This document shows positions 7,455-54,692 of a stretch of DNA of 64,000 nt, one piece after another (the first letter of the stretch is position 1; every line of letters starts with the position of its first letter). Below the pieces are notes generated by a model, which was not told the origin of the DNA, made no database searches, and worked only from the letters and a program-made list of their open reading frames with translations. Source of the DNA: Escherichia coli (GTDB taxonomy: Bacteria > Pseudomonadota > Gammaproteobacteria > Enterobacterales > Enterobacteriaceae). The stretch lies in assembly GCF_003334385.1 (NCBI RefSeq), contig NZ_QOWN01000024.1; one strand, 5' to 3'. Both the position numbers and the translations under genes were made by a program.

Positions 7455-7512
7455 ACGTTGCACCAATATAGTGCTTCAATGGAAACATTAAGCACCATGT
7501 TGGTGCAATGAC
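7455..7512 (-). promoter_or_regulatory. NtrC enhancer binding sites upstream of glnA
   Basis: Palindromic GCACCAtgtTGGTGC at about 7495-7509 and TGCACCAatataGTGC at about 7459-7474, roughly -140 and -108 relative to glnAp2. Confidence 0.7.
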
Positions 7513-7658
7513 CTTTGGATAACCCTTTTTATGCTCCGTGAAAGCGATCACAAAGGGACTCTGCAATACTTGTTTGCGGAGGATGTTTGTGATCCTGTTT
7601 TGTAGTGCGATTAATCCGTGTACAATAACGCGCTATTTCTAATGCCTGAGGCAAAGTT

Positions 7659-9482
7659 GTGATCGAAAAATTGCGTAATATCGCCATCATCGCGCACGTA
7701 GACCATGGTAAAACTACCCTGGTAGACAAGCTGCTCCAACAATCCGGTACGTTCGACTCTCGTGCCGAAACCCAAGAGCGCGTGATGGACTCCAACGATT
7801 TGGAGAAAGAGCGTGGGATTACCATCCTCGCGAAAAACACCGCTATCAAATGGAATGATTACCGTATCAACATCGTTGATACCCCGGGGCACGCCGACTT
7901 CGGTGGTGAAGTTGAACGTGTAATGTCCATGGTAGACTCAGTGCTGCTGGTGGTTGACGCATTTGACGGCCCGATGCCGCAAACGCGCTTCGTAACCAAA
8001 AAAGCGTTTGCTTACGGCCTGAAGCCGATTGTTGTTATCAACAAAGTTGACCGCCCTGGCGCGCGTCCTGATTGGGTTGTGGATCAGGTATTCGATCTGT
8101 TCGTTAACCTCGACGCGACCGACGAGCAGCTGGACTTCCCGATCGTTTACGCTTCTGCGCTGAACGGTATCGCGGGTCTGGACCACGAAGATATGGCGGA
8201 AGACATGACCCCGCTGTACCAGGCGATTGTTGACCACGTTCCTGCGCCGGACGTTGACCTTGACGGTCCGTTCCAGATGCAGATTTCTCAGCTCGATTAC
8301 AACAGCTATGTTGGCGTTATCGGCATTGGCCGCATCAAGCGCGGTAAAGTGAAGCCGAACCAGCAGGTCACTATCATCGATAGCGAAGGCAAAACCCGCA
8401 ACGCGAAAGTCGGTAAAGTGCTGGGCCACCTCGGTCTGGAACGTATCGAAACCGACCTGGCGGAAGCTGGCGATATCGTGGCGATCACGGGCCTGGGCGA
8501 ACTGAACATTTCTGACACCGTTTGCGACACGCAAAACGTTGAAGCGCTGCCGGCACTCTCCGTTGATGAGCCGACCGTTTCTATGTTCTTCTGCGTTAAC
8601 ACCTCGCCGTTCTGCGGTAAAGAAGGTAAGTTCGTAACGTCTCGTCAGATCCTGGATCGTCTGAACAAAGAACTGGTACACAACGTTGCGCTGCGCGTAG
8701 AAGAAACCGAAGACGCCGATGCGTTCCGCGTTTCTGGTCGTGGCGAACTGCACCTGTCTGTTCTGATCGAAAACATGCGTCGTGAAGGTTTCGAACTGGC
8801 GGTATCCCGTCCGAAAGTAATCTTCCGTGAAATCGACGGTCGTAAACAAGAGCCGTATGAAAACGTGACGCTGGACGTTGAAGAACAGCATCAGGGTTCT
8901 GTGATGCAGGCGCTGGGCGAACGTAAAGGCGACCTGAAAAACATGAATCCAGACGGTAAAGGCCGCGTACGTCTCGACTACGTGATCCCAAGCCGTGGTC
9001 TGATTGGCTTCCGTTCTGAGTTCATGACCATGACTTCCGGTACTGGTCTGCTGTACTCCACCTTCAGCCACTACGACGACGTACGTCCGGGTGAAGTGGG
9101 CCAGCGTCAGAACGGCGTACTGATCTCTAACGGTCAGGGTAAAGCGGTCGCGTTCGCGCTGTTCGGTCTGCAGGATCGCGGTAAGCTGTTCCTCGGTCAC
9201 GGTGCAGAAGTTTACGAAGGTCAGATTATCGGTATTCATAGCCGCTCTAACGACCTGACGGTAAACTGCCTGACCGGTAAGAAACTGACCAACATGCGTG
9301 CTTCCGGTACTGACGAAGCCGTTGTTCTGGTTCCGCCTATCCGCATGACTCTGGAACAAGCTCTGGAGTTCATCGATGATGACGAACTGGTAGAAGTGAC
9401 TCCAACCTCTATCCGTATTCGTAAACGTCACCTGACGGAAAACGATCGTCGTCGCGCTAACCGCGCACCGAAAGACGATTAA
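7659..9482 (+). CDS. typA: ribosome-associated translational GTPase BipA/TypA
   Basis: 607-aa ORF with GTG start; [27 protein letters not shown]-domain motifs [18 protein letters not shown]. Confidence 0.97.
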
Positions 9483-9499
9483 TTTCGTTTTTTAGTTAT

Positions 9500-9532
9500 A
9501 AAAAACCTGCCATCGCTGGCAGGTTTTTTTTT
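9500..9532 (+). terminator. rho-independent terminator after typA
   Basis: Hairpin cctgccatcgctggcagg followed by a T9 run. Confidence 0.8.
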
Positions 9533-9698
9533 ACCTGTCGTGAGCGCACACCAATGCGAGTATCTCCCTTATAAGTCTGTGATTACGTCAATAGAGAGCT
9601 TTGTCACAATTATCTGCAAAGTCATACACCGTTAATTGCTTTCTTTTTTGGCGTAAGCGTAAGATGCTTCATCTGGTTTAAACCAAAAGGATTAAACA

Positions 9699-32795: not shown

Positions 32796-35700
32796 TTACA
32801 CCTTTTCCACATTCACAAGGAAGGACTTAAACTCCGGCGTCTGCGTGTTCGCATCACCAACGAATGGCGTTAAAGTATTGGCAATAAAGCCTTTTTTAGC
32901 TACGCCTTCATAGCCCCAGTGAATCGGAATACCGATGGTATCGATATCTTTGCCGTTCGCTTTCAGCGTGCGAATACGTTTGGTCACCACCGCTTTGGCT
33001 TTGATATAGCCACGGTTGGAGGAGACTTTCACGGTATCGCCCTGGGCAATGCCAAGTTTATTCGCCAGCGACTCCCCGATTTCCACAAACTGCTCTGGCT
33101 GCAAAATCGCGTTCAACAGCGCGTGTTTGGTCCAGTAGTGGAAGTGCTCGGTCAGACGATAGGTGGTTCCGACATACGGGAACTTATCGGCTTTACCCAA
33201 TGCTTCGGCGTCGTCTTTAAAGATACGTGCAGCCGGGTTCGAGATAACGTTTGGATGCAGCGGGTTAGTTCCCAGCGGCGTTTCAAACGGCTCGTAGTGT
33301 TCCGGGAACGGACCTTCCGCCATCTTATCGAGGGCAAACAGACGCCCCATGCCTTCCTGCTGCATGATAAACGGCCCGACGCCGCTACCCGGAGGCGCTG
33401 CGCTGTAGTCCGGAATATCCCAGCCGGTCCACTTAGTGCCGTCCCATTTCAGCAACTGACGCTTCGGATCCCACGGGTTACCCTGCGGATCTGCGGAGGC
33501 GCGGTTATACAGAATGCGGCGGTTAAGCGGCCATGCCCATGCCCAGCCCAGCGTGTTACCGAGGCCAGACGGATCGGCGTTATCACGGCGTGCCATCTGG
33601 TTGCCTTCCGGCGTCCAGCTACCGGCGAAAATCCAGCAGCCACAGGAGGTTGTACCGTCATCGCGCAATTGGGCGAACGAACTAAGTTGTTGGCCTTTCT
33701 TGACGATAACCGCACCGGTTGCCGGATCGGTAATATCGGCCAGCGCCTTACCGTTGCTCTCCATCGCCACTTCTTCTGAAGATGGCTCATGCGGAATGGC
33801 GTAGTTCCATGTCATGTTCAGCACCTGGTCCGGGTTCGCGCCACCCCGTTCGGCATACATCTTGCGCAAGCGCAGGAAGATACCGGAGAGGATCTCGCCG
33901 TCAGTCAGCGCAATCCCCGGGGCGTCCGCACCTTTCCAGTGCCACTGTAACCAGCGACCTGAGTTAACGATAGAACCGTTCTCTTCCGCGAAGCAGGTCG
34001 ATGGCAGACGGAACACTTCGGTCTGGATCTTCGACGAGTCAACTTCGTTCAGCTCACCGTGGTTCTGCCAGAAGTTAGAGGTTTCAGTGTTCAGTGGGTC
34101 GATGGTGACGAGGAACTTCAGTTTCGACAGACAACCGATCACTTTGTTTTTGTTCGGGAATGAGGCAACAGGGTTAAAGCCCTGGCAGATATAGCCATTG
34201 ACCTTGCCCTCTTTCATCATCTCGAAGTATTGCAGGACGTCGTAGCCTTTATCCCACTTCGGCAACCAGTCAAAGCCCCAGCTATTTTCCGCCGTCGCTT
34301 TATCACCAAAGAAGGCCTTCATCATAGAGACGAAGAATTTCGGGTAGTTGCCCCAGTAGTTTACCTGGCCTTCCAGCAGCGGTTTTGGCGTGTTGGCGGT
34401 AAGGTAGGTTTGCAGATCGGTCTGCTTCTCGCTTGGCAGCGTCATGTAACCTGGCAGGCTCTGCGACAGCAGCCCCAGGTCCGTCAGCCCCTGAATATTG
34501 GAGTGACCGCGCAGGGCGTTAACGCCGCCGCCTGCCATCCCCATATTGCCGAGCAGCAGCTGGATCATCGCCATCGTACGAATGTTTTGCGCACCAACGG
34601 AGTGTTGCGTCCAGCCGAGGGCATACAGGAACGAGGCAGTTTTATCGTGAGCACTGGTTTCTGCGATGTATTCGCAGACTTTCAGGAACGCGTCTTTTGG
34701 CGTACCACAGATGTTTTCAACCACATCTGGCGTGTAGCGGGAAACGTGCTGTTTCAGCAAGTTCCACACGCAGCGCGGATGTTGCAGCGTGGTATCGCGT
34801 TTGGCGAAGCCGTTTTCGTCCAGTTCATAAGTCCAGGAGGATTTATCGTACTTGCGTTTTTCCGCGTCGTAGCCGGTGAACAGGCCATCTTCAAAGCCGT
34901 AATCCTCACGCACGATCAGGCTGGCGTTGGTATAGGCTTCGGTGTATTCGCGGTTGAATTTTTCATTGTTCAGCAGGTACAGCAATACGCCTGACAGGAA
35001 AGCAATGTCAGTACCGGAACGAATAGGGGCATAGTAGTCAGCTACCGCCGCCGTACGCGTAAAGCGAGGATCGATCACAATCAGTTTCGCGCCGTTGTGA
35101 ATTTTGGCTTCCATCGCCCAGCGGAACCCGACCGGGTGAGCTTCAGCGGCGTTACCGCCCATCACCACGACGAGGTTGGCGTTCTTGATGTCGACCCAGT
35201 GGTTGGTCATCGCACCGCGACCAAATGTTGGAGCAAGACTTGCTACCGTTGGTCCGTGTCAGACACGCGCCTGGTTGTCGACCGCGAGCATACCCAGCGC
35301 GCGGGAGAATTTTTGCGTTAAATAGCCGGTTTCGTTACTCGACGCGGAAGCACACAGCATCCCGGTGGAGAGCCAGCGGTTAACAGTCACGCCTTCGGCG
35401 TTTTGCGCAATGTAGTTAGCATCGCGGTCTTCTTTCATCAGTTTGGCGATGCGATCAAACGCCTCTTCCCAACTGATTTGCTGCCATTTATCAGAACCTG
35501 GCGCACGGTATTCCGGAAACTTCAGACGGCTTTCGGAGTGGATGAAATCCACCAGGCCAGCGCCTTTCGGACAAAGTGCACCGCGGTTGACCGGGTGATC
35601 CGGATCGCCTTCGATATGGAAGATAGATGCTTTGGCGTTTTTTGCTCCGTCACCGAGGCTGTACATCAACAGCCCACAGCCTACGGAACAATAGGTGCAG

Positions 35701-40510: not shown

Positions 40511-40735
40511 ACCCGTAGGCCGGATAAGGCGCTCGCGCCGCATCCGGCAATCAATGCCTGATGCGACGCTGTCGCGTCTTATCAGGCCTACAACTATTGC
40601 CGACCTGTAGGCCGGATAAGGCACTTGTGCCGCATCCGGCAATCAATGCCTGATGCGACGCTGTCGCGTCTTATCAGGCCTACAACTGTTGCCGACCCGT
40701 AGGCCGGATAAGGCGCTCGCGCCGCATCCGGCAGT
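40511..40735. repeat. BIME array: about 2.5 tandem copies of a ~100-bp REP-containing unit
   Basis: Unit gtaggccggataaggcgctcgcgccgcatccggcaatcaatgcctgatgcgacgctgtcgcgtcttatcaggcctacaac(t/a)(a/g)ttgccgac repeated between rhaA stop and rhaD start. Confidence 0.9.
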
Positions 40736-49520: not shown

Positions 49521-49606
49521 TGTAGGCCTGATAAGACGCTATCAGCGTCGCATCAGGCATCCTGCTCAAATGCCTGATGCGGCGTAAACGCCTTATCCTG
49601 CCTGCA
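49521..49606. repeat. REP palindromic elements
   Basis: gtaggcctgataagacgctatcagcgtcgcatcaggc and gcctgatgcggcgtaaacgccttatcc between convergent yiiM and cpxA. Confidence 0.8.
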
Positions 49607-50990: not shown

Positions 50991-51685
50991 GAAGCAGAAA
51001 CCATCAGATAGCCGCGACCACGCAAGGTTTTAAACCACGGGTGACCATCTTTACGATCCGGCAGTTTACGACGCAGGTTGGAAATGTGCATATCAATAGC
51101 GCGGTCGAAAGGCGTCAGGCGTTTGCCCAACACTTCCTGGCTTAAATGTTCACGGGAAACCACCTGACCCAGATGCTGTGCCAGCAAATAGAGCAGGGTA
51201 AACTCAGTACCGGTTAACTCCAGCGTTTGCCCGTCGAAGCTGGCTTCCTGACGGCCTGGATTCAGCACTAAGGCATCAACTTCCAGTGTCGGTGAACCGT
51301 TGTCGTTGTTTTGCTGTTGCTCGCTCCAGTGCGAACGGCGCAGGATCGCGCGAATACGTGCCACCAGCTCACGATCATTAAACGGTTTCGGGAGATAGTC
51401 ATCTGCGCCCAGCTCAAGGCCGAGAACGCGATCAAGTTCACTGCCGCGCGCCGTCAACATAATGACAGGCGTCTGGTGTGTCTGGCGAAGTGCTTTTAAT
51501 GTGTCGATACCATTTTTCTTCGGCATCATTACGTCAAGCAAAAGTAAATCAATGCTGTCGTCCAGAAGATCAAGCGCCTGTTCCCCATCGTGGGCAACAA
51601 TCACGTTGAAGCCTTCCATCTCGAGCAGCTCCTTTAATAGGGAAGTCAGCTCTCGGTCATCATCAACTAACAGGATTTTATTCAT
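50987..51685 (-). CDS. cpxR: envelope stress response regulator CpxR (OmpR family)
   Basis: 232-aa ORF MNKILLVDDDRELTSLLKELLEMEGF; overlaps cpxA start by 4 nt. Confidence 0.96.
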   Translation of the reverse strand: MNKILLVDDDRELTSLLKELLEMEGFNVIVAHDGEQALDLLDDSIDLLLLDVMMPKKNGIDTLKALRQTHQTPVIMLTARGSELDRVLGLELGADDYLPKPFNDRELVARIRAILRRSHWSEQQQNNDNGSPTLEVDALVLNPGRQEASFDGQTLELTGTEFTLLYLLAQHLGQVVSREHLSQEVLGKRLTPFDRAIDMHISNLRRKLPDRKDGHPWFKTLRGRGYLMVSAS

Positions 51686-51740
51686 TGTTTAAATACCTCC
51701 GAGGCAGAAATTACGTCATCAGACGTCGCTAATCCATGAC

Positions 51741-51800
51741 TTTACGTTGTTTTACACCCCCTGACGCATGTTTGCAGCCTGAATCGTAAACTCTCTATCG
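51741..51800 (-). promoter_or_regulatory. CpxR-P binding boxes in the cpxR-cpxP divergent promoter region
   Basis: Minus strand GTAAAacaacGTAAA at 51741-51755 (CpxR consensus GTAAA-N5-GTAAA) and a further GTAAA half-site near 51786. Confidence 0.7.
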
Positions 51801-51834
51801 TTGAATCGCGACAGAAAGATTTTGGGAGCAAATG

Positions 51835-52335
51835 ATGCGCATAGTTACCGCTGCCGTCATGGCCTCAACGCTGGCAGTCAGTTCATTAAGCCACGCTGCT
51901 GAAGTCGGTTCAGGCGATAACTGGCATCCGGGTGAAGAACTTACGCAGCGCAGTACGCAGAGCCATATGTTCGACGGCATAAGTTTAACCGAACATCAGC
52001 GTCAGCAGATGCGAGATCTTATGCAACAGGCCCGGCACGAACAGCCTCCTGTTAATGTTAGCGAACTGGAGACAATGCATCGCCTTGTCACCGCAGAAAA
52101 TTTTGATGAAAACGCTGTGCGCGCACAGGCAGAAAAAATGGCGAATGAGCAAATTGCTCGTCAGGTTGAGATGGCAAAAGTCCGCAACCAAATGTATCGC
52201 CTGTTAACGCCGGAGCAGCAAGCGGTTTTAAACGAGAAACATCAACAACGAATGGAGCAGTTGCGTGACGTGACGCAATGGCAAAAAAGTTCATCGTTGA
52301 AGCTATTGAGTAGTAGCAACTCACGTTCCCAGTAG
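51835..52335 (+). CDS. cpxP: periplasmic Cpx pathway inhibitor/adaptor CpxP
   Basis: ORF 51832..52335; [21 protein letters not shown] signal peptide; LTxxQ motifs ([18 protein letters not shown]). Confidence 0.93.
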
Positions 52336-52344
52336 TAAACCCTG

Positions 52345-52402
52345 TTTTCCTTGCCATAGACACCATCCCTGTCTTCCCCCACATGCTGTGGGGGTTTTTT
52401 TT
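52345..52402 (+). ncRNA. cpxQ: cpxP 3'UTR-derived sRNA (CpxQ-like) ending at the cpxP terminator
   Basis: Sequence ttccttgccatagacaccatccctgtcttcccccacatgctgtgggggtttttttt immediately after the cpxP stop; hairpin cccccacatgctgtggggg plus T8. 5' end approximate. Confidence 0.5.
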
Positions 52403-52483
52403 ATCCTCAATTTGCCTGCTGCTTAATGCATTGCAGATGATTTGCTTCCGTTATACTAGCGTCAGTTGATAGCGGGAGTATTT

Positions 52484-53386
52484 ATGAATCAATCTTATGG
52501 ACGGCTGGTCAGTCGGGCGGCGATTGCTGCGACGGCGATGGCTTCGCTGCTATTGCTGATTAAAATTTTTGCATGGTGGTATACCGGGTCGGTGAGTATT
52601 CTCGCCGCGCTGGTGGATTCGCTGGTGGATATCGGCGCGTCGTTGACGAATTTATTGGTGGTGCGATATTCCCTGCAACCTGCCGACGATAATCACTCGT
52701 TTGGTCACGGTAAAGCTGAGTCCCTCGCGGCGCTGGCGCAAAGTATGTTTATCTCCGGTTCGGCACTATTCCTGTTTTTGACGGGTATTCAACATCTGAT
52801 ATCTCCAACACCGATGACAGATCCAGGCGTCGGGGTTATCGTGACAATTGTGGCGCTAATTTGTACGATTATCCTTGTCTCGTTTCAGCGTTGGGTGGTG
52901 CGGCGGACGCAAAGCCAGGCGGTGCGGGCTGATATGCTACATTACCAGTCTGATGTTATGATGAACGGCGCAATTCTGCTGGCGCTGGGGTTGTCCTGGT
53001 ACGGCTGGCATCGCGCCGATGCTCTGTTTGCATTGGGAATCGGCATCTATATTTTATATAGCGCGTTACGCATGGGATATGAGGCGGTACAGTCATTACT
53101 GGATCGCGCATTGCCTGATGAGGAACGGCAAGAAATTATTGATATCGTGACTTCCTGGCCGGGTGTTAGCGGCGCTCACGATCTTCGCACGCGGCAGTCA
53201 GGGCCGACCCGCTTTATTCAGATTCATTTGGAAATGGAAGACTCTCTGCCTTTGGTTCAGGCACATATGGTGGCGGATCAGGTAGAGCAGGCTATTTTAC
53301 GGCGTTTTCCGGGATCGGATGTAATTATCCATCAGGACCCCTGTTCCGTCGTACCCAGGGAGGGTAAACGGTCTATGCTTTCATAA
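52484..53386 (+). CDS. fieF: cation diffusion facilitator (Fe/Zn efflux) FieF/YiiP
   Basis: ORF 52466..53386 trimmed to [49 protein letters not shown], 300 aa. Confidence 0.93.
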
Positions 53387-54584: not shown

Positions 54585-54692
54585 TGCCTGATGCGCTTCG
54601 CTTATCAGGCCTACATGAATTCTGCAATTTATTGAATTTGCAAACTTTTGTAGGCCGGATAAGGCGTTCGCGCCGCATCCGGCATGGACAAA
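54585..54692. repeat. REP palindromic elements
   Basis: atgcctgatgcgcttcgcttatcaggcctac ... gtaggccggataaggcgttcgcgccgcatccggc between pfkA and sbp. Confidence 0.8.

Follow-up and report, generated by a model that had tools for sequence, protein, structure and literature searches.

The 67 nt that follow cpxP in the stretch of DNA analyzed here (the window, 64,000 nt) raise the question of whether they simply end the cpxP transcript or also encode a small RNA (sRNA) and, if so, whether that RNA resembles CpxQ or is CpxQ. CpxQ, characterized since 2016 as the noncoding arm of the Cpx response to inner-membrane stress, is a textbook example of an sRNA derived from a 3′ untranslated region (3′UTR). 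The Salmonella CpxQ was reportedly described by Chao and Vogel in 2016, and CpxQ was reportedly also described by Grabowicz et al. in the same year. A preliminary description of the window had assigned positions 52336 to 52402 to a cpxP 3′UTR that ends in a strong terminator and contains a candidate CpxQ-like sRNA.

The gene order around the locus, taken from the table of open reading frames (ORFs) and the RefSeq annotation, is cpxA and cpxR on the minus strand, followed by cpxP, fieF, and pfkA on the plus strand. The 3′UTR of cpxP spans 67 nt (52336-52402, plus strand), and fieF starts 3′ of CpxQ at position 52484, also on the plus strand. Over the 801 nt between 51700 and 52500, the window shares 100% identity with E. 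coli K-12 MG1655 and with several other strains, and this segment was found in 5426/5426 complete E. coli genomes. Judging from this match, the window is E. coli K-12 itself, the organism in which CpxQ was studied, and the wording "CpxQ-like candidate" is too weak for this locus. The CpxR box consensus (GTAAANNNNNGTAAA), taken from established knowledge of the Cpx regulon, has one perfect match in the 64-kb window, against a chance expectation of 0.08, and the match is located in the intergenic region between cpxR and cpxP. This site would fit the role of transcriptional input to the cpxP-CpxQ transcript, and the transcription of both cpxP and CpxQ is known to be CpxR-dependent (PMC9438474).

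The native cpxQ sequence reported in Table S3 of PMC9753035 (TTTTCCTTGCCATAGACACCATCCCTGTCTTCCCCCACATGCTGTGGGGGTTTTTTTT, 58 nt) was aligned with the window. In total, 58/58 nt match positions 52345 to 52402 on the plus strand with zero mismatches, and the sequence occurs only once in the window. In the curated K-12 record NC_000913.3, the ncRNA gene cpxQ (b4716, "small regulatory RNA CpxQ") is annotated at 4106330-4106387, which corresponds to the same window positions; cpxP ends there at 4106320, and cpxQ begins 10 nt later. The Northern probe of Bianco et al. (PMC6755755) matches positions 52355 to 52376 on the opposite strand, as expected for an antisense probe, and an amplification oligonucleotide from the same study also matches the locus. 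The mature 5′ end was placed at U52345 on the basis of the 58-mer and the b4716 coordinates, and independent published constraints fit only this end: the first nucleotide of CpxQ is a U and its U7 pairs with nhaB (PMC10250213), and the CpxQ-M2 mutant is altered at C11 (PMC6755755). Northern blots of E. coli RNA detect a 58-nt CpxQ species (PMC6755755), and CpxQ has been described as an Hfq-dependent sRNA of approximately 60 nt that RNase E cuts out of the cpxP mRNA and that spans nearly the whole 3′UTR (PMC9438474). The features of the locus are collected in Table 1.

Table 1. Positions in the window of the features of the cpxP-CpxQ locus
Feature	Position	Strand	Basis
Putative CpxR box, GTAAA-N5-GTAAA, cpxR-cpxP intergenic region	51741-51755	-	Sole perfect match to GTAAANNNNNGTAAA in 64 kb
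cpxP coding sequence, parental mRNA of CpxQ	51835-52335	+	ORF list; annotation of the MG1655 record and NC_000913.3
AGUA-rich tract, 4 AGUA in 60 nt	52285-52344	+	Sequence; spans the end of the coding sequence, the stop codons, and the spacer UAAACCCUG
cpxP stop codon TAG	52333-52335	+	Sequence
Second in-frame stop codon TAA	52336-52338	+	Sequence
Predicted RNase E site, CCCUG / UUUUCC	52344-52345	+	Deduced from the published 58-mer and the b4716 coordinates
Mature CpxQ sRNA, 58 nt	52345-52402	+	Match to published sequence; b4716; Northern species
5′ seed, single-stranded, nt 1-13, UUUUCCUUGCCAU	52345-52357	+	Unpaired in the minimum free energy (MFE) and centroid folds
Hairpin 1, stem AGACA/UGUCU (5 bp), 7-nt loop CCAUCCC (nt 19-25)	52358-52374	+	Predicted fold
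Rho-independent terminator hairpin, 8 bp, loop UGC	52376-52394	+	Terminator scan and fold
Polymorphic terminator-loop nucleotide, CpxQ nt 42 (last loop nt); C in K-12, A in others	52386	+
U8 tail	52395-52402	+	Terminator scan

Considering these matches together, positions 52345 to 52402 on the plus strand are almost certainly the CpxQ gene of E. coli K-12, which encodes a 58-nt Hfq-dependent trans-acting sRNA. No evidence contradicts this assignment. The 58-nt sequence, the reference coordinates, the strand, and the position 10 nt past the cpxP stop are those of b4716, and the locus also shares with the known system its architecture of seed, hairpin, and terminator and its target sites in cfa, nhaB, and skp. 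Accordingly, the earlier proposal that the cpxP 3′UTR encodes this sRNA is borne out by the identity to the published 58-mer and by the coordinates of b4716, and it can be sharpened in two respects. "CpxQ" was the right name, but "candidate" and "like" can be dropped, since the sequence is identical to that of K-12 CpxQ. The 3′ end of the interval 52336-52402 is accurate, but its 5′ boundary is not, because the mature RNA starts at 52345, 9 nt inside the interval.

The same description had noted that the 3′UTR ends in a GC-rich hairpin followed by T8, and both elements were recovered. The consensus terminator scan, which covered positions 51600 to 52600 and listed two terminator-like sites, with that of cpxP among them, identified an 8-bp stem (6 G-C pairs) at 52376-52394. 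It is composed of CCCCCACA (52376-52383), the loop TGC (52384-52386), and TGTGGGGG (52387-52394) and is directly followed by the T8 run TTTTTTTT (52395-52402). A Rho-independent terminator with a poly-U stretch, the Hfq-binding module of CpxQ, is thus present at 52376-52402, and the U8 tail would be expected to act both as the termination signal and as the 3′ poly-U bound by the proximal face of Hfq. The interval 52336-52402 folds to -17.4 kcal/mol, compared with -11.55 +/- 2.41 kcal/mol for dinucleotide shuffles (z = -2.43; 2/200 shuffles were as good). The 58-mer also folds to -17.4 kcal/mol (z = -2.8; 1/200 shuffles as good).

Upstream of the terminator, the predicted fold leaves the seed single stranded and places a second hairpin between the two. 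Among the matches listed in the comparison of orthologues described below, the seed (nt 1-13) is unchanged in 30/30 distinct sequences, and hairpin 1 is predicted in the MFE fold of 30/30 variants. The hairpin-1 stem never varies among the orthologues, so it offers covariation evidence neither for nor against the pairing. The hairpin-1 loop would be a second conserved pairing region of the RNA.

The first nucleotide of mature CpxQ is separated from the end of the cpxP coding sequence by the 9-nt spacer UAAACCCUG (52336-52344), the part of the 3′UTR that is absent from the mature RNA. The predicted cut falls between G52344 and U52345, with UUU following on its 3′ side. Processing of CpxQ by RNase E has been demonstrated in Salmonella both in vivo and in vitro; Hfq has a dual role there, in precise cutting by RNase E and then in protection of the product (PMC9438474). 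In E. coli, Northern blots of the rne-3071 mutant and of cells depleted of RNase E show that CpxQ is RNase E-dependent, and precursors supplied on plasmids are processed to the 58-nt CpxQ (PMC6755755). The native RNA is unusually stable, with a half-life of >16 min, and carries a 5′ monophosphate (PMC6755755, PMC10250213). An Hfq CLIP peak marks the orthologue of Yersinia pestis.

These data also bear on an alternative origin, in which CpxQ would not be a processing product but would be transcribed directly from a dedicated promoter within the 3′ end of cpxP, as "type I" 3′UTR sRNAs such as MicL are. Some 3′UTR sRNAs do arise in this way. No sigma-70-like promoter was found upstream of 52345 or elsewhere in the scan of 51600-52600, which is weak evidence against such an origin since the scan was insensitive and also missed the real promoters of cpxP and fieF. 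The native 5′ end is monophosphorylated, and mutation of the cleavage site abolishes CpxQ (PMC9438474). Moreover, U is a poor initiator, and transcription from a plasmid designed to start at this U begins a few nucleotides upstream (PMC10250213). A 52345 end that is unenriched in TEX/dRNA-seq and the loss of CpxQ upon RNase E inactivation have both been reported. We therefore consider an origin from a dedicated promoter vanishingly unlikely.

The route that is consistent with release by RNase E would be as follows. Phosphorylated CpxR would activate the cpxP promoter, and transcription would pass through cpxP and end at the intrinsic terminator (52376-52402). With Hfq first guiding and later blocking it, RNase E would cut between G52344 and U52345, and the cut would free the last 58 nt with a 5′-monophosphorylated U1. 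This places CpxQ beside the "type II" 3′UTR sRNAs SdhX, SroC, NarS, and GlnZ, which are likewise released by RNase E, end in the terminator of their parental transcript, bind Hfq, and carry a 5′ monophosphate. All of them, CpxQ included, regulate genes related to the function of the parental operon, although the parental genes, the seeds, and the regulons differ. Unlike these four RNAs, CpxQ derives from a monocistronic mRNA and spans nearly the whole 3′UTR (PMC9438474).

The conservation of the locus was assessed by scanning species-representative genomes for the pattern CCTTGCCA-N(7-10)-TCCCTGTC, in which 16 bases of the CpxQ core are required; lineages in which CpxQ has diverged or is missing are invisible to such a scan. 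At least 120 stretches matched. Approximately 80 matches in unrelated phyla were set aside as chance occurrences by means of a tblastn filter for CpxP, as they have neither cpxP nor a terminator. Among the matches listed, 39 loci carry the match just 3′ of a cpxP gene detectable by tblastn and on the same strand, and two further, truncated loci (L027 and L099) carry the same sequence. The orthologues were found in Escherichia albertii and in Citrobacter, Enterobacter, Klebsiella, Kluyvera, Pluralibacter, Siccibacter, Shimwellia, Mangrovibacter, Superficieibacter, Pseudescherichia, Pantoea, Erwinia, Rosenbergiella, Serratia, Yersinia, Dickeya, Brenneria, Acerihabitans, Edwardsiella, Morganella, Providencia, Photorhabdus, and Xenorhabdus. 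In established taxonomy, these genera fall into six families of the Enterobacterales: Enterobacteriaceae, Erwiniaceae, Yersiniaceae, Pectobacteriaceae, Hafniaceae, and Morganellaceae.

Across the 39 loci among the matches listed, mean identity to E. coli is 99.8% over CpxQ nt 1-31 (16 of these bases being fixed by the pattern), 82.6% over the terminator, 70.7% over the last 150 nt of cpxP, and 60.7% over the 60 nt downstream. The identity of the CpxP protein itself falls from 98% to 36% over the same loci. At the 15 core positions outside the pattern, 555/555 cells are identical in the 37 loci among the matches listed that have a 31-nt core; in the remaining two, those of Pantoea stewartii and Erwinia persicina, the hairpin-1 loop lacks one C. 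These values agree with the published observation that the CpxQ region is conserved above every other part of the cpxP gene (PMC9438474). Because MAFFT lost the structural register in the variable terminator stems, each variant was folded separately. All 30 distinct variants among the matches listed (30/30) form a hairpin of 5 to 8 bp followed by at least 7 U, and they do so with 25 different hairpin sequences. This pattern is characteristic of a terminator constrained in shape that is joined to a pairing module constrained in sequence.

The pattern of constraint is relevant to a more modest reading of the interval, according to which it is only the intrinsic terminator of cpxP and the short RNA is a functionless decay intermediate. 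The terminator is present, and stable 3′ fragments protected by a terminator are common. A terminator alone, however, needs no 31 invariant nt upstream of its hairpin, and here 25 versions of the hairpin stand against a fixed nt 1-31 across six families, over a range in which CpxP identity falls to 36%. The remaining evidence on this reading comes from the targets, below.

Within E. coli, the 67-mer at 52336-52402 is present in 5,425/5,426 genomes; relative to K-12, it is identical in 899, has one difference in 4,518, and has more differences in 8. In the two one-mismatch strains that were examined, the change is C to A at 52386. That all 4,518 genomes carry this C/A change is an extrapolation from these two strains. 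The nucleotide, CpxQ nt 42, lies outside the seeds and the stems and is the sole variation with respect to the known CpxQ. An A is also found at this position in E. albertii, Citrobacter, and Enterobacter, and the C of K-12 therefore looks like a derived minority allele.

Pairing with the published targets was examined using the nhaB, cfa, and skp sequences of NC_000913.3. RNAduplex energies were compared with those of 300 shuffled seeds, and a scan for contiguous helices followed, which was used to locate the sites since RNAduplex of the 31-nt core against full-length targets gave long-loop artifacts. In cfa, CpxQ nt 4-11 (UCCUUGCC) pair with positions -135 to -128 of the long 5′UTR, and this register sets C11 against G-135, exactly the residues of the C11G/G135C compensatory pair published by Bianco et al. 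(PMC6755755). The cfa duplex (-25.7 kcal/mol) was equaled by just 2/300 shuffled seeds. A 12-bp helix with 4 G-U pairs, one of them at U7, joins nt 7-18 to positions +299 to +310 of nhaB. This site agrees, with a numbering offset of 2, with the statement that the A312:U7 pair of Salmonella nhaB is G:U in E. coli (PMC10250213). In skp, nt 3-13 pair with positions -17 to -7 (11 bp, 2 G-U pairs) and cover the Shine-Dalgarno sequence; alternatively, nt 18-25, in the region of the hairpin-1 loop, pair with positions -20 to -13 beside the Shine-Dalgarno sequence (8 bp, no G-U pairs). In the whole-region RNAduplex comparison, shuffled seeds were as good in 160/300 cases for nhaB and 187/300 for skp, and these energies are not significant. 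Only the cfa result is statistically distinctive. The published nhaB and skp sites are present, but neither target is established by computation on its own.

A further helix was observed in nhaB of NC_000913.3, where CpxQ nt 1-11 (UUUUCCUUGCC) and GGUAAGGGAAA form 11 bp (2 G-U pairs) across the Shine-Dalgarno region, at positions -16 to -6 relative to the start codon. The site in the translation initiation region of nhaB has been reported as not conserved in E. coli (PMC10250213). The helix may be generic, the seed being anti-Shine-Dalgarno-like.

Returning to the suggestion that the RNA is a decay intermediate, the nhaB and skp duplex energies, no better than those of shuffled seeds, are compatible with it. 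Against it stand the published compensatory mutants of C11 and G135 in cfa, the phenotypes of delta-cpxQ strains, Hfq CLIP, and the repression of nhaB and skp; together with the constraint on nt 1-31, these leave it next to no credence. For CpxQ as a trans-acting regulator, the published record is that it represses CpxP in addition to nhaB, skp, and cfa (PMC9438474, PMC6755755, PMC10250213). In the most likely mechanism, the unstructured seed (nt 1-13) and the hairpin-1 loop (nt 19-25) would provide two pairing surfaces, and the terminator and U8 tail would anchor Hfq. CpxQ would pair with mRNAs of envelope proteins (nhaB, skp, cfa, agp, ydjN, and fimA), and pairing would block translation or promote decay by RNase E, thereby lowering the load on the stressed inner membrane. 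The same transcript would thus supply two effectors, the protein CpxP and the RNA CpxQ.

An additional feature lies directly upstream of the CpxQ 5′ end, where the E. coli sequence (UUGAGUAGUAGCAAC...CCAGUAGUAAACCCUG) is rich in AGUA. At 40 loci among the matches listed, the 60 nt upstream of CpxQ contain a mean of 3.35 AGUA, versus 0.13 in background windows taken from these loci, and such a tract precedes the cleavage site in every lineage sampled. In E. coli, the stretch encodes the tail of CpxP together with its two stop codons, whereas it is wholly untranslated in Morganellaceae and Pectobacteriaceae, where 38 to 102 nt separate the stop codon from CpxQ. In-register runs of A-R-N triplets are enriched approximately 2-fold over background, and in most loci they are not significant relative to dinucleotide shuffles. 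A literature search returned no description of the AGUA tract. It might help Hfq or RNase E to find the site, although we offer this as inference only. Since the constraint on the core exceeds what seed pairing of 8 to 12 bp needs, the invariant 31 nt and the AGUA tract could be parts of a single dedicated recognition module (such as one that is A-R-N-like, is bound by the distal face of Hfq, and positions RNase E) or could reflect an additional partner or function of CpxQ; we regard this proposal as unlikely, an outside chance.

The identity of the locus contrasts with how it fares in automated annotation. A search of Rfam 15 at the gathering threshold returned no family at the CpxQ locus. 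Under permissive settings, the best match, on the minus strand, was RF02628 ("Hrs1") at 52330-52402 (41.4 bits, E = 5.7e-7); with a gathering score of 56.4 bits, and given its strand, this match does not make the locus a member of the family. Other permissive matches (NsiR1, anti-hemB, and others; E >= 0.04) were dismissed as terminator look-alikes.

Elsewhere in the window, the search at the gathering threshold returned matches at 291-544, 7470-7577, 9467-9535, 35206-35264, and 54607-54648, which include the CsrC sRNA (277.9 bits) and ES222. Among the window matches, STnc370 scored 54.9 bits, barely over its threshold of 54, SECIS_3, a selenocysteine insertion element, was matched on the minus strand, and ES036 was matched just 3′ of pfkA. 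The REP-derived, nucleoid-associated RNA naRNA4 had four matches (2785-2862, 40518-40588, 40610-40680, and 49525-49602), of which the second and third form a tandem pair spanning 40518-40680 and the last lies on the minus strand directly downstream of cpxA. CsrC, ES222, the naRNA4 REP elements, and ES036 are also typical of E. coli.

Hrs1 of Erwinia amylovora is an abundant Hfq-dependent RNA of 74 nt between cpxP and fieF, and the defining paper places it on the strand of these two genes ("> > >") with a Rho-independent terminator (Zeng & Sundin 2014). Given this position, strand, and terminator, Hrs1 is the Erwinia orthologue of CpxQ. The Erwinia and Pantoea loci share the 5′ core of E. coli CpxQ, and in 2/4 of them the hairpin-1 loop is one C shorter; as defined, Hrs1 is 16 nt longer than CpxQ, the extra nucleotides lying upstream of the CpxQ 5′ end. 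At the Erwinia persicina locus and at three Pantoea loci, the minus strand carries cpxP and its terminator, and RF02628 scores 61 to 83 bits on the plus strand, that is, antisense to cpxP (5697-5771 in L058, 9464-9537 in L086, 3725-3799 in L040, and 360-430 in L037). The RF02628 consensus starts with AAAAAAA followed by a GC hairpin, which corresponds to a reverse-complemented terminator. The family thus appears to represent the real RNA in reverse complement, with a seed too narrow for E. coli, and its score below threshold in E. coli results from this reversed, narrowly seeded model rather than from a difference in the RNA.

Taken at face value, the same matches could instead indicate a functional RNA on the minus strand: the best regional Rfam match is on that strand, and in Erwinia and Pantoea the family scores well above its E. 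coli value, again antisense to cpxP. Read in this direction, however, the sequence begins with A8 followed by the hairpin and, lacking a U tail, does not form a terminator. The Hrs1 paper places the RNA on the strand of cpxP and fieF, the published probes and sequences have the sense of the plus strand, and strand-specific probe data show a plus-strand RNA. We give a functional minus-strand RNA practically no chance. The minus-strand ORFs at 52088-52384 (98 amino acids) and 52242-52382 (46 amino acids) were set aside as mechanical ORFs antisense to cpxP.

CpxQ, encoded on the plus strand, is already known and fully characterized, and its presence at this locus is an ordinary finding; the value of the result lies in annotation, not discovery. 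Rfam 15 has no correctly oriented CpxQ family. The RefSeq records of E. coli annotated by PGAP have no feature under the 67-mer that contains CpxQ, and the curated NC_000913.3 alone names cpxQ. Pipelines based on Rfam therefore miss CpxQ, and a reading of the sequence alone can still list it as a candidate. With its strand corrected and its seed widened, RF02628 would allow CpxQ to be annotated across the Enterobacterales.
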